A DNA stretch of 14,995 bases. It comes from Chlamydiia bacterium. GTDB lineage: Bacteria; Chlamydiota; Chlamydiia; Chlamydiales; Parachlamydiaceae. How positions within the stretch are numbered: position 1 is the first letter of the stretch; each line of letters opens with the position of its first letter. A program made the translations under genes and the position numbers. The stretch spans positions 1 to 14,995 of the forward strand of contig JBBSJT010000055.1 of the NCBI GenBank assembly GCA_038257035.1, written 5' to 3'. The notes below the pieces were generated by a model. That model was not told the DNA's origin. It saw only the letters and a list, made by a program, of their open reading frames with translations, and ran no database searches. Positions 757-14,995 of the stretch are shown piece by piece.

Positions 757-890
757 TCTGAATATTCTGATCAAGTCACACTCGATCATACCAATAATGT
801 CTAAATTTTTTATTTTTACGTAGCACTAATATATACTTGTTCTACTTCAAAATGAAGAAATTTAGGCCCCTACATTTTATAACATTTGAA

Positions 891-1019
891 TTTTTTACAG
901 GATATGCACGATCGCTTCGCGGCATGATAAGCAGGATAATATCAACCTCCTGCTTTACCGGGGGTTGAGATTATCCTGCTTATCGTGCCGCGTAGCGATC
1001 GTGCATATCCTGTAAAAAA
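891..1019. repeat. Long palindromic element: 60-bp inverted arms (4 mismatches) around a 9-nt loop, with arms built from ~9-bp units
   Basis: 891-950 TTTTTTACAGGATATGCACGATCGCTTCGCGGCATGATAAGCAGGATAATATCAACCTCC pairs with 960-1019. Units: ACAGGATAT / GCACGAT / GCATGATAA / GCAGGATAA. Confidence 0.95.
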
Positions 1020-1085
1020 AATTATTGATGTAATTCTAGTTAGATCGGCATAGTTTTTTTATTTATCTGTATTCCAGTAGTTCGA

Positions 1086-2303
1086 TTATTTAAGCTGTTG
1101 GATGCTGGTTTTTAGGGCTTGAATAAAGAAATCAATTTCATCTTTGCTGTTATAAAGGGCAAATGAGGCTCTTGCAGTGGAGGTAATTCCAAAATGGCGC
1201 ATGACAGGTTGTGTGCAAAGATGACCTGAGCGAATGGCAATGCCTTGTAGATCGAGCAATGTGGCAATGTCAAGTGAATGGATGCCATCGGCTACAAAAG
1301 TTAAAATAGCGCCCTTATTAGCTGCCTGTCCAAGAATTTGAACTTCAGAAATTTCTTCCATTCGAGATGTTGCGTGCACTAAAAGATCATGCTCATGGGC
1401 ATAAATTGCTTCAATTCCAATATTGTTAATATAATCAATTGCAGCGTTCAAGCCCATAACTTCGGCAATAAGCGGGGTTCCTGCCTCAAATTTTAAAGGC
1501 AAAGTATTGTACGTGGTTTTTTCAAATGTAACTTTCTCAATCATGTCTCCGCCACCCTGATAAGGTGGCATTGCATTTAGTAGTTCTTCTTTACCATATA
1601 AAATACCGATGCCTGTCGGGCCATAGAGCTTGTGCCCTGAAAAAACAAAAAAATCGGCATCCAAATCTTGCACATCAATTTTCATGTGAGGTGCGCTTTG
1701 TGCGCCATCCACAAGAAACTTAGCACCCATTTGATGCGCCATTTGAATCATTTCTTTGATTGGATTAACTGTACCCAATGCATTGGAAACGTGAGTTATG
1801 GCAACAAGTTTTGTTTTAGCATTTAAAAGTAGGGCGTAATTCTCTAAATTAATTTCACCCAAATCATTCATAGGGATGACTTTAAGAACAGCACCGCGAT
1901 CCTCACAGAGCATTTGCCAAGGCACGATATTTGAATGATGTTCCATTTCTGAAATAAGGATTTCATCGCCTTTATTTATAAAAGCTTTTCCAAATGAATA
2001 GGCCACCATATTGATCGATTCTGTCGTTCCACGAGTAAATATGATCTCTTCATTTTTTTTTGCATTCAAAAACTTGGCAACTTTTGCACGTGTCTCTTCA
2101 TACTTATGCGTTGCAAAACTAGATAGCTCATAAATGGCTCTATGAACAGTTCCATAATGGTTTTGATAAAAATCTGTGATTGCATCGATCACACAATTTG
2201 GTTTTTGTGCAGTTGCTGCTGAATCCAAATAGACAAGAGGCTTTCCATGCATTTTTGTTTTCAATAAAGGAAAGTCTTCTCGCAATTTTGAAAAATCAAC
2301 CAT
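1086..2303 (-). CDS. sufS: Cysteine desulfurase, SufS (group II) family
   Basis: N-terminal motif YLDSAATAQKP, PLP-lysine motif SGHKLYGPTGIG, catalytic Cys motif RSGHLCTQP. Last gene of the suf cluster; overlaps the end of sufD. Confidence 0.96.
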   Translation of the reverse strand: MVDFSKLREDFPLLKTKMHGKPLVYLDSAATAQKPNCVIDAITDFYQNHYGTVHRAIYELSSFATHKYEETRAKVAKFLNAKKNEEIIFTRGTTESINMVAYSFGKAFINKGDEILISEMEHHSNIVPWQMLCEDRGAVLKVIPMNDLGEINLENYALLLNAKTKLVAITHVSNALGTVNPIKEMIQMAHQMGAKFLVDGAQSAPHMKIDVQDLDADFFVFSGHKLYGPTGIGILYGKEELLNAMPPYQGGGDMIEKVTFEKTTYNTLPLKFEAGTPLIAEVMGLNAAIDYINNIGIEAIYAHEHDLLVHATSRMEEISEVQILGQAANKGAILTFVADGIHSLDIATLLDLQGIAIRSGHLCTQPVMRHFGITSTARASFALYNSKDEIDFFIQALKTSIQQLK

Positions 2304-3624
2304 TTTTTATTTCTTTTCCAAACGTTTTAGCTTGTTCAATAATCATTGTTTTTAGAGATTCAATTGTAATCAAATCGATGACCTCTTTGCAGAAACCAAA
2401 AAGCAATAAATTTTTAGATTCAAATTCAGAAATTCCACGAGATCTTAAACAAAAAAGCTGTTCCTGATCAAGTTGTCCGAATGTCGCACCATGCGATGCT
2501 TTTACATCGTCTGCAAAAATTTCCAAATTTGGTTTACTAAAAGCCATTGTGTGATCGCTGAGAAGTAAATTTGCATTGAGTTGAAAAGCATCTGTTTTTT
2601 GAGCAGCTTGTTTTACTAATATTTTACCCTCAAAGCTTGATTTTGAAAAATCGTCTAAGGCACCTTTAAACAGTTGTCTTGAGCGACAATTAGGAGCTTG
2701 ATGATCAATGAGGACATGATAATGCTGCTCATTATTATCTTTTAACATCCAAAGATTGTTTAAAGCACATTCTGAATTTTCACCAATCAATGTCATTTTA
2801 TAATCGCGTCGAATGGCAGAAGATCCGTTTGAAAAAGAAATGCTTTCAAAAGTGCTGTTTTTCTTTAAAATCGCACGAGTTGCTTCAAAATGGTAAAAAT
2901 CGTCTGATTTTTTACTGATCATACAATTGAGGCGTACATGGGAGTCTTCTTCGATGGCAAAATCAGAAACATGATTAACAAAATGATCACCAATCGATAA
3001 AAATTCTTGGGTTAAAACGCATTCAACAGATGAGTGTGCTCCCACAAAGACTTGAAGACGAGGATTTAAAATCATTGATTCATTTGGGGAATCGATTAAA
3101 TGAAGAATTTGTATTGGTTTTTCCAAAACAGTTTTAGGCGGCAAATAAATAAAGATCCCTTCATTTTGCAGTGCGGCGTTTAAGGCTGCAAAAGGATCCG
3201 ATTCATTTTTTAAAGTCTTTGCAAAATGATTTGTTAAAAATGAGCTATAGGTATGCATCGCCTCATTTAAAGAAGAGATAACAACACGGGTTGAAACATT
3301 GGTAGTATTGGAAAATTCTTTTGAATAACGACCGTTGACTAATACAATAAAGGAGTTTTGGCATTCAGGTAATACAAATTTTAAAACCGTTTCAACGCTT
3401 ATTTTTGGCTCATAAGAGGAAGATTGATACTGTTTTTCAAAGAATTTTCGCAAAGGAACGTAGCGGAAAGCTTCCTGTTTTTTTGTCGGCAGTCCTAAAG
3501 CTTTAAATTGATCAAATGCTTGAACTTTAATTTTTTGAAGCATCCCTTTATCGCCTTTTTCAAGAAAAAGCTCATCCAACGTTCTTTGGAAATCTAAATT
3601 TTGCCCATTTAAAGTATTTGTCAT
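2296..3624 (-). CDS. sufD: Fe-S cluster assembly protein SufD
   Basis: Motifs LPTKKQEAFRY, FEGKILVKQAAQKTDAFQ, KPNLEIFADDVKASHGAT and CLRSRGI. Lies between sufC and sufS. Confidence 0.94.
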   Translation of the reverse strand: MTNTLNGQNLDFQRTLDELFLEKGDKGMLQKIKVQAFDQFKALGLPTKKQEAFRYVPLRKFFEKQYQSSSYEPKISVETVLKFVLPECQNSFIVLVNGRYSKEFSNTTNVSTRVVISSLNEAMHTYSSFLTNHFAKTLKNESDPFAALNAALQNEGIFIYLPPKTVLEKPIQILHLIDSPNESMILNPRLQVFVGAHSSVECVLTQEFLSIGDHFVNHVSDFAIEEDSHVRLNCMISKKSDDFYHFEATRAILKKNSTFESISFSNGSSAIRRDYKMTLIGENSECALNNLWMLKDNNEQHYHVLIDHQAPNCRSRQLFKGALDDFSKSSFEGKILVKQAAQKTDAFQLNANLLLSDHTMAFSKPNLEIFADDVKASHGATFGQLDQEQLFCLRSRGISEFESKNLLLFGFCKEVIDLITIESLKTMIIEQAKTFGKEIKNG

Positions 3625-4388
3625 TAAACAACTTCCTCAATTTCCGGTGACTTAACCAACCAATCATACCCTTTTTCTTCAAGCTGCAAAGCAAGATCAG
3701 CATTACCTGACAGTGTAATCACACCATCGAGCATTACATGGACGAATGCAGGTTTAATGTAGTCGAGCAATCTTTGATAATGCGTAATTAAGATCAGTCC
3801 CATTTCAGGATTCATGATTTGATTTACGCCCTTTGAAACTATTCTCATGGCATCAATATCAAGTCCTGAATCCGTTTCATCTAAAATTGCAAGAGTCGGA
3901 TTTAAAATAGCCATCTGTAAAATTTCATTGCGTTTTTTTTCTCCGCCTGAAAATCCTTCATTTAAATTTCTTTCCATGAATTCAGATTTTATTTCCATCA
4001 TTTTCATTTTGTCTTTAAGCAAAATTTCAAATTCTTCAACCGATAATTCAGGCTGAAGATTAGCTTTTGCTTTGGCATTATAGGAAAGACGCAAAAATTG
4101 AACATTGCTAACACCCGGAATTTCGATCGGATACTGAAAGCTCATAAAAAGACCAAGGTGAGCGCGCTCTTCCGGTTCAAGTTCCGTTAAATTTTGTCCT
4201 AAAAACCAAATTTCGCCTTGAGTGATCTCATAACTTGGATGACCTGCCAACACTTTTGCAAGAGTTGATTTACCGGCTCCGTTAGGCCCCATAATGGCGT
4301 GAACTTCACCTTTATTAACTTTTAGATCTAATCCTTTTAAGATTTCTTTGCCATCAATTGATACGTGCAAATCTTTAATTTCTAACAT
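3624..4388 (-). CDS. sufC: Fe-S cluster assembly ABC-type ATPase SufC
   Basis: Walker A GPNGAGKST, signature FSGGEKKRNE, Walker B LAILDETDSGLDID, and the ITHYQRLL H-loop. Confidence 0.97.
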   Translation of the reverse strand: MLEIKDLHVSIDGKEILKGLDLKVNKGEVHAIMGPNGAGKSTLAKVLAGHPSYEITQGEIWFLGQNLTELEPEERAHLGLFMSFQYPIEIPGVSNVQFLRLSYNAKAKANLQPELSVEEFEILLKDKMKMMEIKSEFMERNLNEGFSGGEKKRNEILQMAILNPTLAILDETDSGLDIDAMRIVSKGVNQIMNPEMGLILITHYQRLLDYIKPAFVHVMLDGVITLSGNADLALQLEEKGYDWLVKSPEIEEVV

Positions 4389-4390
4389 CT

Positions 4391-5839
4391 TTATCCTACA
4401 GAGTTTTCTAACTTTATGCTTAATAATTTTTGGGCTTCCGCTGCAAATTCTAATGGCAGCTTATTCATAACTTCACGGCAAAACCCATTGACAACCATTC
4501 CAACTGCATCTTCTTTGGTAAAGCCCCTCGATTGAAAGTAAAAGAGGATTTCATCATTAATTTTTGAAGTGGAGGCTTCATGCTCAACCTGTGAGGTTGC
4601 ATTGGAAACTTCGATATATGGAAATGTGTTGGCAGAGCATTGATCTCCAACTAACATGGAATCGCATTGCGTATAGTTTCTTGCGCCGGAGGCTTTTTTT
4701 GCGACTTTAACAAGACCGCGGTAACTGTTATGGGATTGATCTGCCGAAATTCCTTTTGAGATAATTGTCGATTTGGTGTTTTTTCCAAGGTGGATCATTT
4801 TAGTTCCGGTATCAGCCTGCATTTTACCATTTGTTAAAGCAACGGAGTAAAACTCACCAACGGAGTTATCACCTTCAAGGATAACACTTGGGTATTTCCA
4901 GGTAATTGCGGCACCAACTTCAACTTGGCTCCATGAAATTTTAGAACCCTTGCCAGCAGCTCGTCCTCGTTTGGTTACAAAATTATAAATCCCACCAAGG
5001 CCGGTTTCAGGGTTTCCTGAGTACCAATTTTGTACCGTGGCATATTTAATTTGCGCGTTATCAAAGGCAACTAATTCTACAACCGCCGCATGAAGTTGAT
5101 TGTTGTCAAAGGCAGGTGCTGTACAGCCTTCTAGATAACTGACAAATGAATCTTCTTCTGCAATAATTAATGTGCGCTCAAATTGACCTGTTTCTTTGTC
5201 ATTAATTCGAAAATAAGTGGAAAGCTCCATGGGTGAAATTACCCCTTTTGGAACATAAACAAAAGATCCATCGGTAAATACGGCAGAATTTAGTGCGGAA
5301 AAGAAATTATCGCCGATAGGAACAACTGTTGCTAAATATTTTTTGATCAATTCAGGGTATTTTTTTATCGCTTCTGAAATGGAACAAAGAATAACGCCTG
5401 CATCGTCTAGTTTTTTCTTGAATGTTGTTCCGATCGAAACAGAATCAAAAACCATGTCAACAGCTACGTTGCTAAGGCGCATTTGTTCATCTAGTGGAAT
5501 TCCGAGTCTTTCAAAGGTCTTTAAAATTTCAGGGTCGACTTCATCTAGGCTATTAAGGGATGGTTTTTTCTTTGGCGCCGAGTAGTAGCAAATATCTTGA
5601 TAATCAATTTTTGGATAACTTGCATTTACCCAATCAGGCTCTTCCATCTCAAGCCATTTACGATAGGCTTTTAGACGAAATTCAAGCATGAACTCAGGCT
5701 CTTCTTTTTTTGCTGAAATTGCGCGTACAATATCTTCGTTCAAGCCTTTTGGAAGTTTGTCGGTTTCTACATCTGTTACAAATCCATATTTATAAGAGCT
5801 AAAGTTTGAATTTTCCGTCGTGCTTTCAGGTATTGACAT
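4391..5839 (-). CDS. sufB: Fe-S cluster assembly scaffold SufB
   Basis: Motifs [50 protein letters not shown] and EHEASTS. Confidence 0.97.
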
Positions 5840-6162
5840 TTGTTATTTTCTCCAAAAATAATGTGTATATCTTAAGCTCTTCTAATACCCTTAATAAATT
5901 AGACGAATCTCTTGAATGGTAAAAGTTATGAAAAGCTAAGAAATAATACTTTTGATTTTAACATAAAAAGGCGAATATTTAAAGCTAAAAATTAGGAAAA
6001 GAGGAAATTCCAACTGAAATGAATTCAAATAAATTATTTAATTTGTATCTAATCAAATTAATTTTATTATATAAATATTTTTTTTATCTTCAATTTCTTG
6101 CAGAAAAAATTAAAAAGATGGATGCTATCTATATAAGTACTTAAAAAGAGGAGAAAAGAAAC

Positions 6163-6714
6163 ATGAAGGTCACCGAACAAGCCAAGGCTAAAATGCTTCT
6201 TGCACAAGAACATTTAAAAAACGATCTTAAAGGAATTAGAACAGGTAGAGCAAATCCTGCGATGTTAGATAGTATCTTTGTAGATGTGTATGGACAGCAA
6301 ACACGTATTAAAGATATTGCTTCCGTTACAACTCCGGAACCCAGACTTTTACTAATAACACCTTTTGATAGACAAAATAATAGCGCAATTGGTAAAGCAA
6401 TTGAAAAAGCAAATTTGGGTTTCATGCCAATCGTTGATGCCAATTGCGTGCGCATTAAGATTTCACCGATGGATGATTCGATGAGAAAAGATATGATCAA
6501 GCTTGCTTACAAAAGATGTGAAGAGTCTAAGGTTAGCATCAGAAATGCAAGACGCGAATTTAATGATATAGCAAAAAAACAAAAAAATGCTGGTGATTTG
6601 ACAGAAGATGTTTTGAAAAAAATCGAAAAAGAGATACAAGAGATGACAGATAAGTTCTGTAAGGAATCTGACGAAATCACGGCGAAAAAGGAAAAGGAAA
6701 TTAGTACGATTTAG
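6163..6714 (+). CDS. frr: Ribosome recycling factor
   Basis: Motifs [22 protein letters not shown] and KVSIRNARR; 183 aa; purine-rich RBS GAGGAG upstream. Confidence 0.96.
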
Positions 6715-6732
6715 GCAAAAAAACTTTTTTTA

Positions 6733-6774
6733 GATATTTGCATTTTTTTTGTTGCAAAAAAAAATGCAAATATC
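6733..6774. other. AT-rich 18-bp inverted repeat between frr and the tRNA genes (possible hairpin), overlapping a candidate tRNA promoter
   Basis: GATATTTGCATTTTTTTT (6733-6750) pairs with AAAAAAAATGCAAATATC (6757-6774). TTGCAA (6752-6757) ... TAAGAT (6776-6781), with an 18-nt spacer, overlaps it. Confidence 0.6.
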
Positions 6775-6842
6775 ATAAGATAACACCTTCTTAAAGCAAA
6801 CGTAATGTTCACACATTAGTTAGCTAGTAAAATAAGAAAAAC

Positions 6843-6917
6843 GGCCCCATCGTCTAGCCTGGCCTAGGACACCGGATTTTCATTCCGATAACAGGGGTTC
6901 GAATCCCCTTGGGGTCA
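6843..6917 (+). tRNA. tRNA-Glu (anticodon TTC); CCA not encoded
   Basis: Acceptor stem GGCCCCA/TGGGGTC; anticodon arm CCGGA-TTTTCAT-TCCGA with TTC at 6879-6881; T arm AGGGG-TTCGAAT-CCCCT. Confidence 0.95.
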
Positions 6918-6923
6918 ACGTTT

Positions 6924-6996
6924 GAGACTTTAGCTCAGTCGGTAGAGCATCTCACTTTTAATGAGGGTGTCGATGGTTCGAGTCCATCAAGTCTCA
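6924..6996 (+). tRNA. tRNA-Lys (anticodon TTT); CCA not encoded
   Basis: Acceptor stem GAGACTT/AAGTCTC; D arm GCTC-AGTCGGTA-GAGC; anticodon arm TCTCA-CTTTTAA-TGAGG with TTT at 6957-6959; T arm GATGG-TTCGAGT-CCATC. Confidence 0.96.
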
Positions 6997-6999
6997 AAT

Positions 7000-7042
7000 A
7001 AGCATGAAATAAGAGTAAAATCTTATTTCATGCTTTTTTTTT
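7000..7042 (+). terminator. Rho-independent terminator of the tRNA pair
   Basis: Perfect 15-bp stem AAGCATGAAATAAGA / TCTTATTTCATGCTT, loop GTAAAA, running into a T-tract, directly after tRNA-Lys. Confidence 0.88.
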
Positions 7043-7083
7043 GCTCCCATCCAAAACGTTTTTTTATCACTATAACGCTATGA

Positions 7084-7349
7084 GGGATTTTTTTACCGCG
7101 AAGGACGCGAAGAGAGCGCGCTTAGCAGCGCGAATAAGAAGGGATTCGAAAAGTTATTAATGAAAACCATTTGTTTAAAATTGTTTTTGACAAAACAATT
7201 TTGTTAATCACCCTCTTTGCAAATTGCAAAGAGGGATAAAGATAAAATCTACAGATTTCCTTCCTCTTCGCGCTCTTAGCGCGCTTCTTCGCGTTTCTTC
7301 CCGCAGCGAAGCATGCGCTTCTTCGCGTTCTTCGCGGTAAAAAAATCCC
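7084..7349. repeat. 266-bp inverted-repeat element (MITE-like) with GC-rich arms of ~9-bp NNCGCGAAG units and two internal palindromes
   Basis: Left end GGGATTTTTTTACCGCGAAGGACGCGAAGA matches the reverse complement of the right end at 29 of 30 positions. Arms continue imperfectly to ~7142 and ~7259. The AT-rich core holds palindromes at 7177-7202 and 7211-7235. Confidence 0.9.
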
Positions 7350-7440
7350 CAGAAGAGGTATAACGTGGTAAAAAACGATAGTAAAAGGTCTACATTTATT
7401 TTTTTAATTTTTATAGTGTGGATAAATTATACAAACACTC

Positions 7441-8013
7441 GTGGAAAATTATTTTATGCCTTTACCTCCTAAAAATAATTCTGAAGAAAACATTCCTGAA
7501 AGACCTTTGGAGTGCGGTGATTGCAAAAAGCCAATTGCCGTCCGTTATACTGAAATTGTAAATGGTACTTACACCCATACAAGTATGTGCAAAGATTGCC
7601 CCGAACTGCAAAGACGCTTGCACGGGTTAAGTTTTGTTGAGCAAACGGCAGGATCCCATCCGACTAAAACCGGCGTTGCTTGCGGAAACTGTGGCACAAC
7701 ACTTCAAGCATTACGTGTAGGAGCTCTTTTAGGGTGCAGTAATTGTTATGAGATTTTTAAAGACATTATTATTTTAGAACTTTTAAACCTTGGAAAAATT
7801 TCTGCGCGTGCGGCAAATGCAAAAAGAAATACCCCTATACATATCGGCAGAATTCCGGGGGAATCTCTTAAATTCAATCCTTCTGCTCAACTCATTGCCT
7901 TAAATGAGGCTTTAACTGAAACGTTAATGCAAGAAGATTATGAGCAAGCAGCCATTCTTAGAGATCAAATTAAAGCGCTGACTGATAATTCAGGAGAACC
8001 GGATGAAAAATAG
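7441..8013 (+). CDS. mcsA: McsA-family protein (protein-arginine kinase activator; CXXC motifs plus C-terminal UVR domain); start could be ATG at 7456
   Basis: Four CXXC motifs (CGDC, CKDC, CGNC, and CSNC within LGCSNCY), the HIGRIP motif, and UVR motif EDYEQAAILRDQIK. Overlaps the start of mcsB. Confidence 0.9.
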   Translation: MENYFMPLPPKNNSEENIPERPLECGDCKKPIAVRYTEIVNGTYTHTSMCKDCPELQRRLHGLSFVEQTAGSHPTKTGVACGNCGTTLQALRVGALLGCSNCYEIFKDIIILELLNLGKISARAANAKRNTPIHIGRIPGESLKFNPSAQLIALNEALTETLMQEDYEQAAILRDQIKALTDNSGEPDEK

Positions 8014-9073
8014 TAATGAAAAAGAAAACATTATTTTAAGTCTTGCAAACCCTTGGATTAATAATGAGAACAATATATGGCTTGCCTCAACACTTGAAGT
8101 TTATCGAAACATCGAAAAATATTTATTTCCTGAAAAGCTAGATACCGAGCGACAAAAACAAGTTATTAACCTTGTTGGTCCTGAAATTTTAAAATTAAAA
8201 CAAGAACAAAAACCGACTCTCATATTAGCAGAAGAGATTAATCCACTTGCCAAACAATTTTTAGTCGAACATTTTTTAAGCATTCAAAGTTTTCAAAATA
8301 CGCATGTCGGAGAAGCTTTTATCATAGACCAAACAGGTGAATTTTTAGCCTGCGTTAACATTCATGACCATATCCGTTTAAAAATCATCGATTGCCATGG
8401 CGAGCTAGAAAATAAATGGAATGAACTTTTAATAGCAGAATCTACCATCGGTAAAGCAATCCCTTATGCATTTTCTTCAAAGTTCGGTTTTTTAACCTCT
8501 GATCCTTCTTTTACGGGGTCGGGGCTTTTAGCAACTGTATTTTTACAACTTTCAGCATTAATACAATTGAATAAGCTTGATGAAATTCTTGAAAAACATA
8601 CCGATGAGTTGATCTTGATTACAGGGATTCAAGGAAATCCAAATGAATTTATAGGCGATGTTTTGGCTATAAGAAACAATCAGACACTTGGAGTTACCGA
8701 AGAAATGATTATTTCTTCAATTCGTGCCCTGACAACTAAATTATTAACGGAAGAAAATCGGGCAAGAAACGAAATTCGAACAAGTCAGAATGCACATATT
8801 AAAGACCTTGTCAGCCGTGCATACGCCATTTTAATACATTCGTACCAGATTGAATCTGTTGAGGCATTAAATGCCATAAGCTTGATCAAACTTGGAATAG
8901 AGCTTGGTTGGATCAGTGGATTGACTTATCTTGAACTTAACAGATTGTTTTTCAATTGTAGAAGATCGCACCTTCTTTCCAATTTTGGAGATGTTATTCC
9001 ACAGGACGAGTTGCCTCATAAACGAGCGGAGTTCATTCATGAGGCGTTTAAAAATAGCGAACTTAAAATTTAA
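8003..9073 (+). CDS. mcsB: McsB-like protein arginine kinase (ATP:guanido phosphotransferase fold) with divergent active-site motifs
   Basis: Motifs FLVEHFL, VNIHDHIRL (NEEDH position), YAFSSKFGFLTSDPSFTGSGL, NNQTLGVTEE, SRAYAIL, EALNAISLIKLG and RAEFIH. Coupled to mcsA. Confidence 0.88.
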   Translation: MKNSNEKENIILSLANPWINNENNIWLASTLEVYRNIEKYLFPEKLDTERQKQVINLVGPEILKLKQEQKPTLILAEEINPLAKQFLVEHFLSIQSFQNTHVGEAFIIDQTGEFLACVNIHDHIRLKIIDCHGELENKWNELLIAESTIGKAIPYAFSSKFGFLTSDPSFTGSGLLATVFLQLSALIQLNKLDEILEKHTDELILITGIQGNPNEFIGDVLAIRNNQTLGVTEEMIISSIRALTTKLLTEENRARNEIRTSQNAHIKDLVSRAYAILIHSYQIESVEALNAISLIKLGIELGWISGLTYLELNRLFFNCRRSHLLSNFGDVIPQDELPHKRAEFIHEAFKNSELKI

Positions 9074-10140
9074 AGATCGTATGGCAGATTAGTATAAATG
9101 ATTTCTGGTTCTTTCAAGAGTTTTGAAAGGATCAAATCAAAAACAATTTTACCTTCTTGAGTTGTTAAATCTTGAAATAATAAATCCTTTGCTGCAAAGC
9201 TACCCTTAGATGCTGCATCTTTTAAAAAGAGAAAAAATTTATAGCTTGGATCTTGTTTTTTTTGTTTATTGCCCAAAAATTCAACAAGTGCCTTCATTAA
9301 AGAGACTCTGCAATCGTTTTCAGCATCAGTTTTATTAAATTTTGCAAGGTCCGCCTTTGCTTGATTTAAGTCAGCCGGAAGAGAGAAGTGACCCTTTTTG
9401 TCTAGCAACTTTAAGTAACATAGATTAACTTCTGCAAGACTTGAATATTCCGGAGCGTTTTTTAAAGCAGCAATTTCCCTATATGTTTCCATAGCTAATT
9501 GTTTATGCATTTTTCTATATTTGTCCGTCCTTGCAAGACTTCTTCTTTGATCATGTAACTTTGCAATGTTTAGATGAGCTTCAACATCGAGGCTTTCAGC
9601 CCCAAGTTTAAAATAAGCCAAAGCCCACTCTTCATCTTTTTCAATTGTACCTCGGCCTTCCAAATAAATCTGACCCATTTCATTATATGCTACGCCACCA
9701 AGAGGAAGTTTTGCCATTTGACGCAATTCAGCTAAAGCATTTTCAAAATCATTAAGATCTTGATAAATGATTACACGTTTCGTACAGGCTGATAGTTTTA
9801 GATTTACATCAGTTGTCATGGCTAAAGCTTTTGCATATAAATCCAATGCTTCTTTTTTATCTGATTCCAAGTTAGAGGCGGCTTTATTGTTAGCTAATTG
9901 GAAAAAATCTAAATCGGTTTTTGGTTCAACTTCAATTTTTTCTTCTATAACAATCTTTTCTTCAATGATGATTTCGTTAGAAATTTCCATGCGAGGGCGC
10001 TTAACTTCTTTTGATTTTAAGCTGTCTTCCAATTGACTCATTCTTCTTTTGCTTTCTTTAATTGCTTCTGCCATTGGCACGTATTTTACACCAAATTTCT
10101 CTCGAATTGCCTTACGAACGCTTGCTGAACCGGTATCCAT
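9070..10140 (-). CDS. TPR/Sel1-like repeat protein; true start probably ATG at 10312, separated by a 1-nt frameshift
   Basis: TPR-like ALDLYAKAL...FENALAEL and Sel1-like AYNEMGQIYLEGRGTIEKDEEWALAYFKLGAESLDVEA. The frame is open upstream to ~10308. Its stop codon overlaps the convergent mcsB stop by 4 nt. Confidence 0.75.
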   Translation of the reverse strand: MDTGSASVRKAIREKFGVKYVPMAEAIKESKRRMSQLEDSLKSKEVKRPRMEISNEIIIEEKIVIEEKIEVEPKTDLDFFQLANNKAASNLESDKKEALDLYAKALAMTTDVNLKLSACTKRVIIYQDLNDFENALAELRQMAKLPLGGVAYNEMGQIYLEGRGTIEKDEEWALAYFKLGAESLDVEAHLNIAKLHDQRRSLARTDKYRKMHKQLAMETYREIAALKNAPEYSSLAEVNLCYLKLLDKKGHFSLPADLNQAKADLAKFNKTDAENDCRVSLMKALVEFLGNKQKKQDPSYKFFLFLKDAASKGSFAAKDLLFQDLTTQEGKIVFDLILSKLLKEPEIIYTNLPYDL

Positions 10141-10358
10141 GACAGGTGTTCTTTTAAAAGTTACTTTTTGGACACTAGGTGTTTCTGAAATAGTTGGGGT
10201 GTCTAAAATAATTGATGGAGCTTCAAAGGAAGAGTCATATCGGGAATGAAAGAAGTTGGCCTTCCAGGTGATAATTTTCAGGATAAAAATGGTTATTTGT
10301 AACGTTATTCATTAGTTATTTCCTTATTTATTGAATGAATTTTTATATTAAAAAGTTA

Positions 10359-10387
10359 AGTATAAGGAAGTTAAGTTTGATTGTCAA
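10359..10387 (-). promoter_or_regulatory. Sigma70/sigma66-type promoter for the Sel1/TPR gene
   Basis: On the minus strand: TTGACA (10387-10382), 17-nt spacer, TATACT (10364-10359). Followed by an AAGGA RBS and ATG at 10312. Confidence 0.75.
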
Positions 10388-10400
10388 CTTCTATTAAAAT

Positions 10401-10566
10401 GACAAAAGGGACAAAAGGGACAAAAGGGACAAAAGGGACAAAAGGGACAAAAGGGACAAAAAAACTTTGTAAATTATATCACATTAGTTATTCTTTGAAG
10501 ATACTTTCAAGACGGTGGGAATGTCCTTTTAGTCCTTTAAGTCCTTTTTGTCCCTTAAGTCCTTTA
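10401..10566. repeat. Inverted pair of 9-bp tandem-repeat arrays
   Basis: Left arm: 6 perfect GACAAAAGG units plus a partial unit (10401-10461). Spacer: 60 nt. Right arm: 5 degenerate complementary units TGTCCTTTT AGTCCTTTA AGTCCTTTT TGTCCCTTA AGTCCTTTA (10522-10566). Confidence 0.93.
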
Positions 10567-10577
10567 AAATCTTTTTC

Positions 10578-12200
10578 TCAAGGTTTATTTTGAATAACCG
10601 GAAGTATAATTTGCGATGGATAATCTTTACCCACAAATAGGCTGTTCTTTGCAACGGAACATAAGCCTTTATTGGCACCGGTTAGGCCGACGTTGAGATT
10701 TTTCTCATATTTTGGATAATTTGAACTGCTGATAGAGACACGAATTTTGTGTCCCTTTGCAAAGACCAAGCTTGTTGACCAGAGATCGACGTTAATTTCT
10801 TTTGGATGTGTCAAGTCGGGGTTTGCAGCATGGTGGAAACCGGTACGGTACATACCGTCTAAAATTAAAATGCTACGACCATCAGGGTAAACGTCAGTTA
10901 AACGCACAACAACATCAGTATCTTGTTTGTCAGAGGCAAAAAACAGTTTTGCAAAAATACGCCCTGTAATTTCAAGTTCTTCTTGTAAAACATCTGATGT
11001 GAAAGTTAAAACATCATCGCGTTGTTCAATGCATTGCTGATCTTTTGGGCCTGACTCTAAAAAGAGATTGCTTCCGCCACAAGTTGAAATAACAGCTTCC
11101 GGATCATAACGGTAAGTGAAGGCAGTTTTATTAGCTGAGGAAGCGGTTTTTGTGATTTTTTTATCTTCGTTTAAATAAAAGCTAGTAGGGGTGGAGGGTA
11201 CCGGCCAAACATCCGATGATTTCCAGACGTTTCCGGAAGATGGCTCATCAGAAAATGGTCCCATTACATAATAAGTAACGGCAGGAATTTCATCCATTCC
11301 ATTTTTAATATCTTTTAAGTGATAGTCAAACCAGCGGTTTGGCTTCATGTCAAAAGGTGGAGCATAGCCTAATTTTGGGACTTCAAAGTCGCCAAGTTTA
11401 GTTGAAAGAGGAAAATAGTGTGTCCAAGGCCCGATAATCAGTTTTTGAGTATTGCGAGCGCCTATTGCTCCCTCATTTTGTCTTGAAGTAAAGCTGTCTA
11501 ATGTGCCTTGCAAGAAGGTATCATACCATCCTCCATAATGCAATCCCGGAACTTTAACAAGATGGGCCATTTTGACAGCATCTAAATGTTCCCAAAAGTG
11601 GTTATAAAAGGGTTGGTTGCATACCTGGGCAAGAACGCCTTGGTCCTTGGCATAAAGCCCAAGCCAGCCTTCGACTTGATTTTTTAAAAGTTGTCCACCG
11701 GGAAAAATCGCATGATGGTAAAGAGAGGCGGGTGCTGTTCCAATGTATTGGCATTTAAGGGAGGGAGGTGCGGTTGGAGCCATGAGAACTTGAGTAAGGC
11801 CTGCAGCTGAAAAACCTAAAGTACCGATTTTTCCGTTGGTATATTCAGATTTTGCAAGCCATTCAACAGTGTCATAGCCATCCTGATGTTTCCACCAGCC
11901 ATCACTTAAGTAAGGAAATGTTTTACCTTCAATATCGATTGCGCTTCTTGTGTCTTGAATGGCTACAACATAGCCATAAGCATTTAAAGCAGCGTAGCTT
12001 TTCCAAGGTTCTGCGCATCTTCCGCCGGGGAGGCGTAATAGAATGCAGGGTAAATTTTTTGCGTCTTTACAGGGCAAATAAAGGTCGATGGGAAGTTCTA
12101 CGCCATCCCTCATAGGGACTTGCAAAGTGACCGTTGGCTCAAGAGCTAGTAAAACATGAATGTTAAATAAAAAAGCGAATATGTATCGAAATATTTTCAT
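10578..12200 (-). CDS. CocE/NonD-family (peptidase S15-like) alpha/beta hydrolase with probable signal peptide
   Basis: Motifs VPMRDGVELPIDLYLP, YVVAIQDTRS, DGYDTVEWLA, nucleophile GFSAAG, GGWYD, IGPWTH, and C-terminal DTDVVVRLTDVYPDG and GHKIRVSISSSNYPKY. Hydrophobic N-terminus MKIFRYIFAFLFNIHVLLA. Confidence 0.9.
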   Translation of the reverse strand: MKIFRYIFAFLFNIHVLLALEPTVTLQVPMRDGVELPIDLYLPCKDAKNLPCILLRLPGGRCAEPWKSYAALNAYGYVVAIQDTRSAIDIEGKTFPYLSDGWWKHQDGYDTVEWLAKSEYTNGKIGTLGFSAAGLTQVLMAPTAPPSLKCQYIGTAPASLYHHAIFPGGQLLKNQVEGWLGLYAKDQGVLAQVCNQPFYNHFWEHLDAVKMAHLVKVPGLHYGGWYDTFLQGTLDSFTSRQNEGAIGARNTQKLIIGPWTHYFPLSTKLGDFEVPKLGYAPPFDMKPNRWFDYHLKDIKNGMDEIPAVTYYVMGPFSDEPSSGNVWKSSDVWPVPSTPTSFYLNEDKKITKTASSANKTAFTYRYDPEAVISTCGGSNLFLESGPKDQQCIEQRDDVLTFTSDVLQEELEITGRIFAKLFFASDKQDTDVVVRLTDVYPDGRSILILDGMYRTGFHHAANPDLTHPKEINVDLWSTSLVFAKGHKIRVSISSSNYPKYEKNLNVGLTGANKGLCSVAKNSLFVGKDYPSQIILPVIQNKP

Positions 12201-13455: not shown

Positions 13456-13481
13456 TATTTGGATTAAATTTTGGAGAGTAT

Positions 13482-13574
13482 TGTAGCACCACGCCGTGGT
13501 GCATTACTATTTTTATCATTACCGGTGGTGAAACCGCCGGAATAATTAAATAGCACCACGGAAGTGGTGCTACA
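13482..13574. repeat. Inverted pair of GTAG-type REP-like palindromes (REPIN-like) with a central hairpin
   Basis: TGTAGCACCACGCCGTGGTGC (13482-13502) and, on the opposite strand, TGTAGCACCACTTCCGTGGTGC (13574-13553). Central hairpin CCGGTGGT-GAA-ACCGCCGG (13522-13540). Confidence 0.8.
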
Positions 13575-13592
13575 TCCTAGGTAAGATTAGCT

Positions 13593-14863: not shown

Positions 14864-14889
14864 TAGTTTTAATAAAATTGGGAAATTTT

Positions 14890-14935
14890 AGCCGCGGATG
14901 CGGCGACAGCATGTAGCCACGGGTGTCAACCCATA
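14890..14935. repeat. GC-rich REP-like remnant with two small hairpins
   Basis: GCCGC-GGAT-GCGGC followed by GACAGCATGTAGCCACGGGT-GTCA-ACCC, a GC-rich island within very AT-rich intergenic DNA. Confidence 0.5.
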
Positions 14936-14995
14936 CGCATTAAGCTAAGCGATTAAATTGTTTAAAAATCTGAAAATGATAGAATTTTTTTAAGG

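Follow-up and report, generated by a model that had tools for sequence, protein, structure and literature searches.

Gene-less hairpin elements E1, E2 and E3 of a Parachlamydiaceae genome as probable relatives of GxxExxY gene cassettes

The elements E1, E2 and E3 are three intergenic hairpins in a DNA stretch of 14,995 nucleotides (the window), which is contig C55 of a Parachlamydiaceae assembly of 2.37 Mb, 210 contigs, and 36% GC (coded G000). The window carries sua5, sufS, sufD, sufC, and sufB, frr, tRNA-Glu and tRNA-Lys, an mcsA/mcsB-like pair, a Sel1-like open reading frame (ORF), an S15 peptidase gene, and rpsT. The nearest named relatives of the McsB-like protein come from two Parachlamydiaceae metagenome-assembled genomes (MAGs), with 70-73% identity. 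E1 is located between sufS and sua5 on the minus strand, E2 between tRNA-Lys and the mcsA-like gene on the plus strand, and E3 between the S15 peptidase gene and the Sel1-like ORF on the minus strand. A sequence-only reading of the window had placed all three between co-directional genes, which is borne out by the gene calls at each site, and had proposed that they are a class of non-autonomous elements, possibly empty versions of cassettes with small genes. Overall, it appears probable that E1, E2, and E3 belong to a class of hairpin cassettes, as members that lack a gene and are non-autonomous.

Architecture of the three elements

The positions and the inverted arms described by the sequence-only reading were correct by inverted-repeat search and by folding. 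E1 is a near-perfect palindrome of 129 bp, in which two arms of 60 nt (891-950 and 960-1019) are 93% complementary and enclose a loop of 9 nt (951-959). Its left arm begins with T6-AC and continues with CAGGAT, CACGAT, CATGAT, and CAGGAT motifs; the right arm is the complement of the left and terminates in GT and at least six A. E2 has a terminal inverted repeat of 43 nt (7071-7113 and 7320-7362, 84%), and its fold pairs about 7084-7145 with 7258-7349, i.e. beyond the terminal repeats. The left arm of E2 (7084-7145; repeat search and fold) starts GGGA-T7-ACC and is followed by CGCGAAG-type units, while the right arm (7258-7349; repeat search, Tandem Repeats Finder, and fold) consists of CTTCGCG units with a period of 9-10 and terminates in GGT-A7-TCCC. 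The interior between them (7146-7257) is conserved among E2 copies (match query positions 22-263) and contains an inner hairpin at 7198-7248. E3 has an inverted repeat of 59 nt (10400-10458 and 10522-10580, 73%) with 63 nt between the arms. The predicted RNA folding energies (dG) are -102.0 for E1, -126.7 for E2, and -65.7 for E3, with z-scores of -19, -15, and -9 against mononucleotide shuffles.

The tandem units of about 9 bp, which had been ascribed to all three elements, were recovered by Tandem Repeats Finder to different degrees. They stand fully for E3, where the left array (10401-10461) is (GACAAAAGG) x6.8 at 100%, and the right array (10522-10580) is a degenerate complement with GTCCTTTAA x5 (period 9, x5.0 at 80%, 10523-10567). 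The spacer of E3 (10462-10521) carries the conserved inner sequence of its family, ..TTTCAAGACGGTGG, as the comparison of copies indicates. For E2, only the right arm is supported, with a period of 9-10 confined to 7264-7286, 7265-7304, and 7319-7336; in the left arm, CGCGAAG can be read once more at +9. No tandem array was reported for E1. The motifs of E1 are spaced 9, 16, and 9 nt and thus form a degenerate 9-mer array rather than a clean one, and clean 9-nt CAGGAT arrays are present in E1-type arms of relatives (e.g. locus L087). Therefore, the features that define the class, namely inverted arms of tandem 8-9-nt units that are purine-rich on the 5' side and start with (A/T)AC, are clean in E3, partial in E2, and degenerate in E1.

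The core arms are as first described; however, the repeated units are larger than these and extend over 803-1064, 7059-7374, and 10394-10587 by self-BLAST. In E1, the outer left layers (803-890) are repeated together with the core and hold AAGTAGAACAAGTATATA (830-847, minus strand) as well as a 'mid module' (self-BLAST, flanks of 30 copies, motif match), and the outer right layer (1020-1064) holds a degenerate mid module of TATTATTG..GAGAC type (self-BLAST and flank comparison). Across E1 copies, the outward layers comprise four or more types of mid module together with an outer module, AAGTAGAACCAGTATATA, which has 99 matches with up to three mismatches vs 8 in a shuffled genome; the left and right modules may differ in type. 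Placed head to head, the outer module forms GTAGAACCAGTATATACTGGTTCTAC, a GTAG-tagged palindrome seen at seven junctions, e.g. the flank at C5:86 (compare window 830-847); this module may belong to E1 itself or may be the REP sequence of a RAYT transposase. In E2, the outer left layer (7046-7083) reads T7-ATCAC..TATAACGCTATGAG and belongs to DNA that is absent from the relatives' sequences L023 and G053, and the outer right layer (7350-7392) reads ..GTATAACGTGGT-A6..; outer layers were seen in 78 copies. In the E2 family, TATACCGTTAGGAGGGA comes first among these layers, and a T-run-CACCACGAAG layer lies farther out.

None of the elements appears to be a terminator, as the sequence-only reading had stated for E1 and E2, since the terminator scan puts no terminator-like site on E1, E2, or E3. 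The terminator of tRNA-Lys is at 7000-7035, immediately 5' of E2. In an Rfam scan of the window, only the two tRNAs scored above the gathering score, and no family was matched by E1, E2, or E3.

Repeat families, insertion sites, and cargo genes

Elements that were single-copy, fixed at one locus among relatives, and without cargo-carrying versions were expected by the sequence-only reading to be products of local slippage; the elements of the window are neither single-copy nor fixed, and cargo-carrying versions exist for E2 and for E1-type arms. BLASTN against their own genome gave about 106 loci for E1, about 105 for E2, and about 40 for E3. Since 49 of the 106 E1 loci stand at contig ends, the repeats break the assembly, and this explains fragmentation of Parachlamydiaceae draft genomes. 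Self-comparison of the assembly showed 660 short segments (4.8% of the assembly) of repeats with at least five copies, among which E2 (108 segments), E1 (82), a CAGTGAG family (48), and E3 (31) are the largest clusters. Eight families with hairpin-arm architecture account for 338 segments and 68,451 bases, or 2.89% of the assembly. Gene-less hairpin DNA thus makes up about 3% of the 2.4-Mb genome of an environmental chlamydia, which is unexpected in a lineage viewed as streamlined.

The outer end TTTTTTAC..GTAAAAAA, which had been noticed in both E1 and E2, was confirmed and proved to be a feature of several families. A structural search for the form T>=4-A(A)C ... G(T)T-A>=4, in which the 12 nt after the left end recur as their complement before the right end, recovered 141 complete T-run-AC hairpins with lengths between 70 and 380 nt, plus one of 663 nt. 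The unit words behind the common end differ (CGCGAAG, CAGGAT, CAGTGAG, CGCAAAG, and ACGCAGAG), and therefore the end is general to several families. Among the 126 hairpins whose gene context could be classified, 40 are between convergent, 63 between co-directional, and 23 between divergent genes, vs a background of 238, 938, and 283; the hairpins are twofold enriched between convergent genes. The two arms of a copy pair better with each other than with the arms of other copies (0.88 vs 0.78 in E1, 0.82 vs 0.78 in E2, and 0.86 vs 0.81 in the CAGTGAG family), and an arm finds its best partner within its own copy in 6 of 26, 8 of 77, and 4 of 31 cases, respectively, where about one is expected by chance. 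This advantage fits birth of the copies as palindromes from different masters, or partial homogenisation of the arms.

Comparison with the orthologous sites of two same-genus genomes, G053 and G052, showed that E1, E2, and E3 are missing there; these genomes have 68-76% DNA identity to the window and are too diverged to give exact element borders. The gap between sua5 and sufS, which is 297 nt in the window, is 48 nt in G053 and 48-50 nt over the two genomes. Window 7045-7387, with E2, corresponds to 13 nt in G053, and in the MAG locus L023 the gap between tRNA-Lys and mcsA is empty (123 nt), with the right flank kept as at window 7393 onwards. These empty sites bound the E2 insert, including its outer layers, to about 7046-7392. 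The peptidase gene of G053 follows mcsB after 161 nt, vs 1.5 kb in the window, and so both E3 and the Sel1-like ORF are lacking there. Therefore, the copies in the window are insertions relative to related genomes.

Several further observations concern these sites. The Sel1-like ORF (9070-10140) encodes 356 aa with a weak Sel1 match, and it is missing together with E3 from G053, G052, L023, and L024. A sigma-70-like site on the minus strand (10359-10387; 11/12, TTGACA, 17 nt, TATACT) touches the left edge of E3 and faces the Sel1-like ORF. In L024 (2290-2400), from another Parachlamydiaceae MAG, the gap between tRNA-Lys and mcsA is filled by a different, unrelated palindrome (..CTGTTAACAAATTAAATTAAGCAC..GTGCTTAATTTAATTTGTTAACAG..). 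Contigs of a relative with about 92% identity end at the element borders (766/1085, 7049/7377, and 10032/10600). Two joints within E1, 917->994 and 921->989, were considered as empty sites and rejected, as they are shorter variants of the E1 family.

The E1 arm is widely distributed. Its 19-nt end, with at most one mismatch, was found in 62 of 401 genomes of the phylum, in 46 of 212 genera from several families, but in 0 of 30 and 0 of 35 genomes of two well-sampled families; the reversed control gave essentially no matches. Copy numbers of the 19-mer reach 121 in this assembly and 194 in another family. Whole-element E1 DNA was matched in 20 of the 73 genomes of the family, in neither same-genus genome, and E3-type 9-mer hairpins were matched in 16 of the 73. 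The four E3-type loci of relatives that were read, among twelve, are all gene-less, and the number of units is variable and sometimes unequal between the arms. In L118 (G006:C10, 1390-1690), an E3-type hairpin has arms of about 6 vs about 25 units of GGGACAAAA, and therefore arrays can expand one-sidedly.

Cargo-carrying versions are present, both in this genome and in relatives. At C7:922-1592 of this genome, full E2 arms (left T7-ACCGCGAAGACCGCGAAG..., right ...CTTCGCGGT-A7) surround an ORF that matches PF13366 (GxxExxY, PDDEXK_3) with 138.9 bits. On C17, another GxxExxY gene is preceded by a degenerate CAACGCAAA arm and followed by a complete hairpin of the CGCAAAG family, and a four-helix-bundle gene on C166 (PF05635, 55.1 bits) lies between short AATTCCAA-type arms. 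E1-type arms with a GxxExxY gene were found in other genera, at loci of G005, G009, G024, G041, G051, G011, and G031. In G005 (locus L055, C4:901800-903700), they surround an ORF of 147 aa (TIGR04256, 129.8 bits), and this intact cassette is followed by three tandem copies, which keep the arms and both ends of the ORF with the middle of the ORF deleted. The array can be seen as a snapshot of a route to gene-less copies.

The sequence-only reading had stated that similar arms flank GxxExxY and four-helix-bundle (IVP) genes in other bacteria, and a survey of the family supports that link. PF13366 has matches in 55 of the 73 family genomes, 1 to 38 per genome. At an inverted-repeat score of at least 16, the gene is located between inverted tandem-unit arms at 24 of the 30 best loci and 10 of 12 further ones (34 of 42), the latter including CGCGAAG arms (G031) and CAGGAT arms (G024). 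PF05635 was found in 34 of the 73 genomes, with 34 matches in G008 alone, and 13 of 20 loci have arms. The 5' arms of ten of these (L089, L091, L093, L096, L098-L100, L102, L103, and L105) are pyrimidine-rich, GC-rich, and mostly built of 6-nt units (GTGCCC, CTTGCC); L088 has a purine-rich arm (AATTCAGA), L101 an 8-nt unit (CTTGATCT), and L097 no clear unit. The majority of IVP arms are thus opposite in polarity to GxxExxY arms, and differ in period too.

Long autonomous versions were also considered, as arm pairs 1.5-2.1 kb apart are present on C57, C27, C3, and C4, and were rejected. Ordinary ORFs lie between the arms on C57, C27, and C3. Two separate elements are found on C57 by the match table, and, judged from their ORFs, the pairs on C27 and C3 are likely to be separate elements as well. 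The pair on C4 (L048, G000:C4:32200-33950) is a hairpin of the E3 family with a single-copy element of the IS3 family nested inside, which has HTH_Tnp_1 and rve ORFs and its own TG..CA ends (TTGTCCCCA..).

To relate the arms to the proteins, a maximum-likelihood tree was built from 32 GxxExxY proteins. One clade (support 93/97) is made up of the six proteins with CAGGAT arms and another of the two with ACGATA arms; those with CGCAAAG arms fall within one clade of eight, and the C7 protein stands alone on a long branch. The arm label changes 15 times on the tree, vs a mean of 22.0 when labels are shuffled, and none of 200 shuffles was as low. The gene and its arms are thus inherited, or moved, together. 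Both this link of arm word to protein clade and the conservation of the E1 arm, nearly to the base, throughout the phylum point to sequence-specific recognition, and the earlier suggestion that the elements are recognised by their geometry finds no support.

The GxxExxY protein belongs to the PD-(D/E)XK nucleases by its conserved E, D, and ExK residues, its PF13366 score, and its predicted fold. No variation was seen among 22 sequences at E37, D76, E86, and K88 or in the GxxExxY motif. An AlphaFold model (predicted local distance difference test score, pLDDT, 89.4; predicted template modelling score, pTM, 0.83) matches only PD-(D/E)XK nucleases, all weakly (E 1.7e-3 to 0.2), among them a restriction-endonuclease-like protein, lambda exonuclease, OkrAI, Cas4, AddAB, and Hjc; by sequence, no match in the PDB was obtained at E <= 1. 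From the model and the invariant residues, the protein looks like an active nuclease. The function of PDDEXK_3 is given as 'Unknown', with 'multiple transfers', in the consulted part of one paper (PMC3424549).

Interpretation and alternative explanations

The following scheme is probably the best account of these results. The full-length form of the class would be a cassette of about 450-760 bp, in which a small PD-(D/E)XK (GxxExxY / PDDEXK_3) gene lies between two inverted arms, each made of tandem, purine-rich units of 8-9 nt that start with (A/T)AC. We infer that the cassette spreads as DNA, and that the encoded nuclease reads, by sequence, the arrays of units in the cassette's own arms. 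Gene-less copies such as those in the window may then be mobilised in trans by the cognate nuclease, in the manner of miniature inverted-repeat transposable elements (MITEs) and of REPINs, the paired form of repetitive extragenic palindromic (REP) sequences, and afterwards would decay neutrally. As a long hairpin without its own promoter or terminator, the insert may be tolerated between co-directional genes and at the 3' ends of genes. A class of non-autonomous, insertional hairpin repeats, as the sequence-only reading proposed, thus holds: the elements are multi-copy and are missing at the sites of relatives, and versions with cargo exist for E2 and for E1-type arms. The idea of empty cassettes fares well for E1 and E2, whose arms hold GxxExxY genes elsewhere. 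E3, with no cargo partner for its arms, is assigned to the class by its architecture only, which makes its membership plausible. A candidate cognate gene is at hand in the assembly only for E2, on C7, and for the CGCAAAG family, on C17; E1, with about 60 elements, has none, and therefore may be a dead family or may have its master copy in a gap of the assembly.

A number of results weigh against this account. BLASTN matched the cargo interior of C7 to none of the gene-less E2 copies, and therefore the E2 copies are not recent deletions of the C7 gene. No gene of the CAGGAT clade is present in this assembly despite its 121 E1 arms, no cargo partner was found for the E3-type GGACWAAAA arms among the 42 GxxExxY loci and four of the twelve E3-type loci of relatives, and 8 of the 42 GxxExxY loci have no clear arms. 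The families are old, with a median pairwise identity of 73-82%, and the borders of the elements are fuzzy, the palindrome extending outward as weaker, family-specific layers. Compensatory change between the arm columns of E1 is weak (93.2% paired vs 92.1% when the arms are re-dealt, with a maximum of 93.3%, in 13 copies of the same length). No mobility event or empty-site joint was found on the window among contigs from four DNA runs. Finally, labels are shared among relatives, and so the grouping of arm word with clade amounts to joint inheritance and is no proof of binding.

A wider proposal, which is possible but tentative, gives GxxExxY proteins the role of mobility enzymes for a new class of DNA elements in prokaryotes, with E1, E2, and E3 as passengers and the intervening sequences (IVS) of rRNA as a special case. 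A nuclease of about 115-135 residues would read the 8-9-nt words of the arms, one word per protein clade, and the whole hairpin would be moved without target-site duplication and without a transposase or recombinase of known family. Even in a lineage that is obligately intracellular, the non-autonomous passengers could then rise to hundreds of copies, and ORF-bearing rRNA IVS might be cassettes that landed in rRNA. A literature search that did not extend to supplements found no paper on GxxExxY cassettes or on such palindromic repeats or MITEs in chlamydiae. A nuclease family of unknown function gains from these results a concrete candidate substrate, its own arms, and a role that can be tested. 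The arm words, being conserved across families of the phylum, could also mark horizontal exchange among chlamydiae.

It is unlikely, by comparison, that the elements are REPINs moved by the REP-associated tyrosine transposases (RAYTs; Y1 HUH) of the genome, although such transposases are at hand. Y1_Tnp (PF01797) has 9 matches at about seven loci (C29, C119, C105, C7, C25, C48, and C68). Those of C29, C105, C7, C25, and C68 have inverted copies of one repeat on both sides, the classic RAYT/REP layout; repeat clustering gives the same family number on both sides for the first four and two numbers (31 and 107) for C68. The families that flank C119 differ from one side to the other, and C48 is flanked by repeats on a single side. 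As Y1_Tnp genes are boxed by repeat families of their own, true RAYT/REP systems coexist in this genome. The elements resemble REPINs in their length, as hairpins of about 100-300 nt, and in their excess between convergent genes, and the REP of the C29 RAYT (around 9485-9911) starts with TTTACCGCGGAGCGG, which is close to the E2 end TTTACCGCGAAGG (window 7088-7104); this likeness could be a coincidence or could reflect common ancestry of the ends. However, the E1, E2, and E3 families (numbers 1, 0, and 3) flank none of the seven loci, and the genes enclosed by arms at 34 of 42 loci are GxxExxY, not RAYT, genes. REP ends carry a GTAG or CGTC tag, according to the part of PMC3733652 consulted, whereas the ends of E1, E2, and E3 are of the form T-run-AC...GT-A-run and have neither; GTAG is present in the separate outer module of E1. 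Since a palindrome-boxed RAYT could drop from a short-read assembly (the smallest contig is about 1.5 kb), this explanation stays alive at a low level.

Repeats of the REP type are found in the window as well. Two short GC-rich hairpins at 13475-13575 (GTAGCACCACG..CGTGGTGC and ACCGGTGGTGAAACCGCCGG) have matches in the repeats flanking the C29 Y1_Tnp gene; they are of classical REP type, distinct from E1, E2, and E3, and both were flagged by the terminator scan. A GTAG-tagged repeat at 14886-14932 (..CATGTAGCCACGGGTGTCAACCC..) has 21 self-matches and is of the type that flanks the C119 gene, and 14913-14967 is multi-copy also in G053. Two of the Y1_Tnp loci carry interrupting stop codons.

The elements might instead be structural RNA or DNA features selected by the host, such as RNase III sites that separate operon transcripts, stabilisers of mRNA, or supercoiling sites, rather than selfish DNA. 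This appears improbable to a similar degree, in spite of the very stable stems, the sites between co-directional genes and at 3' ends, and the fact that the closest described relatives, the rRNA IVS, are cut by RNase III (PMC4990558, in the part consulted). The same sites lack the elements in relatives, the copies have decayed to the identities given above, 23 of 126 hairpins lie between divergent genes, and no Rfam family is matched. Selection to keep the stems in the sense transcript would be expected to bias arm transitions towards G:U pairs on the sense strand. In the 63 co-directional hairpins, however, 92 G:U-compatible mismatches are on the sense and 101 on the antisense strand (p 0.56), and 539 of 959 arm mismatches are transversions. 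The long dsRNA stem with RNase III-type cleavage, one of two options of the sequence-only reading, therefore gains no support, and the lack of strand bias favours action of the element at the DNA level.

Ordinary MITEs of a DDE-transposase insertion sequence (e.g. of IS630 type with a TA target), moved by its transposase, would share the terminal inverted repeats, small size, high copy number, and lack of an ORF; the outer layer of E1 also terminates in TATATA, and one E3 pair brackets the IS3-family element. This is very unlikely, as no target-site duplication was seen in the 8-nt flanks of 139 hairpins (direct identity 1.78 of 8, with about 2 expected by chance, vs 3.74 inverted) and the IS3 element is a single-copy guest with ends of its own. 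Moreover, among repeats with at least five copies, only two segments exceed 600 nt (C91, with a 438-aa ORF, and C4:14346-14968), and no matching insertion sequence with a transposase was found, no genome-wide Pfam search for transposases having been made.

Integron attC sites are imperfect palindromes with RYYYAAC .. GTTRRRY ends, and some families do start with T-run-AAC, end with GTT-A-run, and overlap attC in size; nevertheless, it is hardly credible that the elements are attC sites, because they are dispersed singly between housekeeping genes and not in co-oriented arrays, the ORF is inside the hairpin and not between two sites, and most copies have TAC/GTA ends. Three unrelated products of local slippage are the least credible of all, for although the perfect 9-mer array of E3 could grow by slippage and unit number varies among copies, each element is one of a dispersed family whose arms and interior are conserved, and copy number refutes the idea.

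Comparison with known systems

The elements share features with four known systems and are identical with none of them. Integron attC sites, too, are imperfect palindromes with conserved short ends and a variable centre; the elements differ in that they form no arrays and that the ORF lies within the hairpin, and no integrase was seen, no search aimed at one having been made. Bacterial MITEs, such as the Correia, RUP, Nezha, and Chunjie types, are similarly non-autonomous, intergenic, and of high copy number, have inverted ends, and break short-read assemblies. Unlike them, the elements have no target-site duplication, and nearly the whole element is one palindrome.

The likeness to REP/REPIN-RAYT systems is that dispersed intergenic hairpins of about 100 nt or more occur as several family-specific systems per genome, and that one gene copy is boxed by repeats which are otherwise scattered without a gene. 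In the present class, however, the boxed gene encodes a PD-(D/E)XK nuclease and not a HUH Y1 transposase, the arms are arrays of tandem units, and the GTAG/CGTC tag is missing.

Among described systems, the rRNA IVS of Coxiella and Leptospira (S23p / PF05635) come closest. In the consulted part of one account (PMC4990558), the 23S IVS of Coxiella has a terminal stem of 28 bp, is excised by RNase III, and carries two to three tandem heptamers, GACAGAT, variable among strains, upstream of a decaying S23p ORF; its origin and mobility are described there as unexplained, and an origin from a mobile element is proposed. The elements of the window differ in being located between protein and tRNA genes and not, as such IVS are, in helix 25 or 45 of the 23S rRNA gene, in having GxxExxY and not S23p as partner gene, and in having hundreds of dispersed gene-less copies. 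An insert in 23S rRNA was found in neither G009 nor G057 (2949 nt vs a model of 2925 positions), and the 23S gene is unassembled in G000, G008, and G055. Their 5' purine-rich arms of 8-9-nt units also differ from the arms of IVP cassettes. In both systems, a small ORF lies within terminal inverted repeats that form a long stem, and short tandem repeats adjoin the ORF in the IVS as unit arrays build the arms of the cassettes. Since PF05635 itself is found in cassettes with unit-array arms in Parachlamydiaceae (the 13 of 20 loci above), the ORF-bearing rRNA IVS, long unexplained, may be tied to a wider family of hairpin cassettes.

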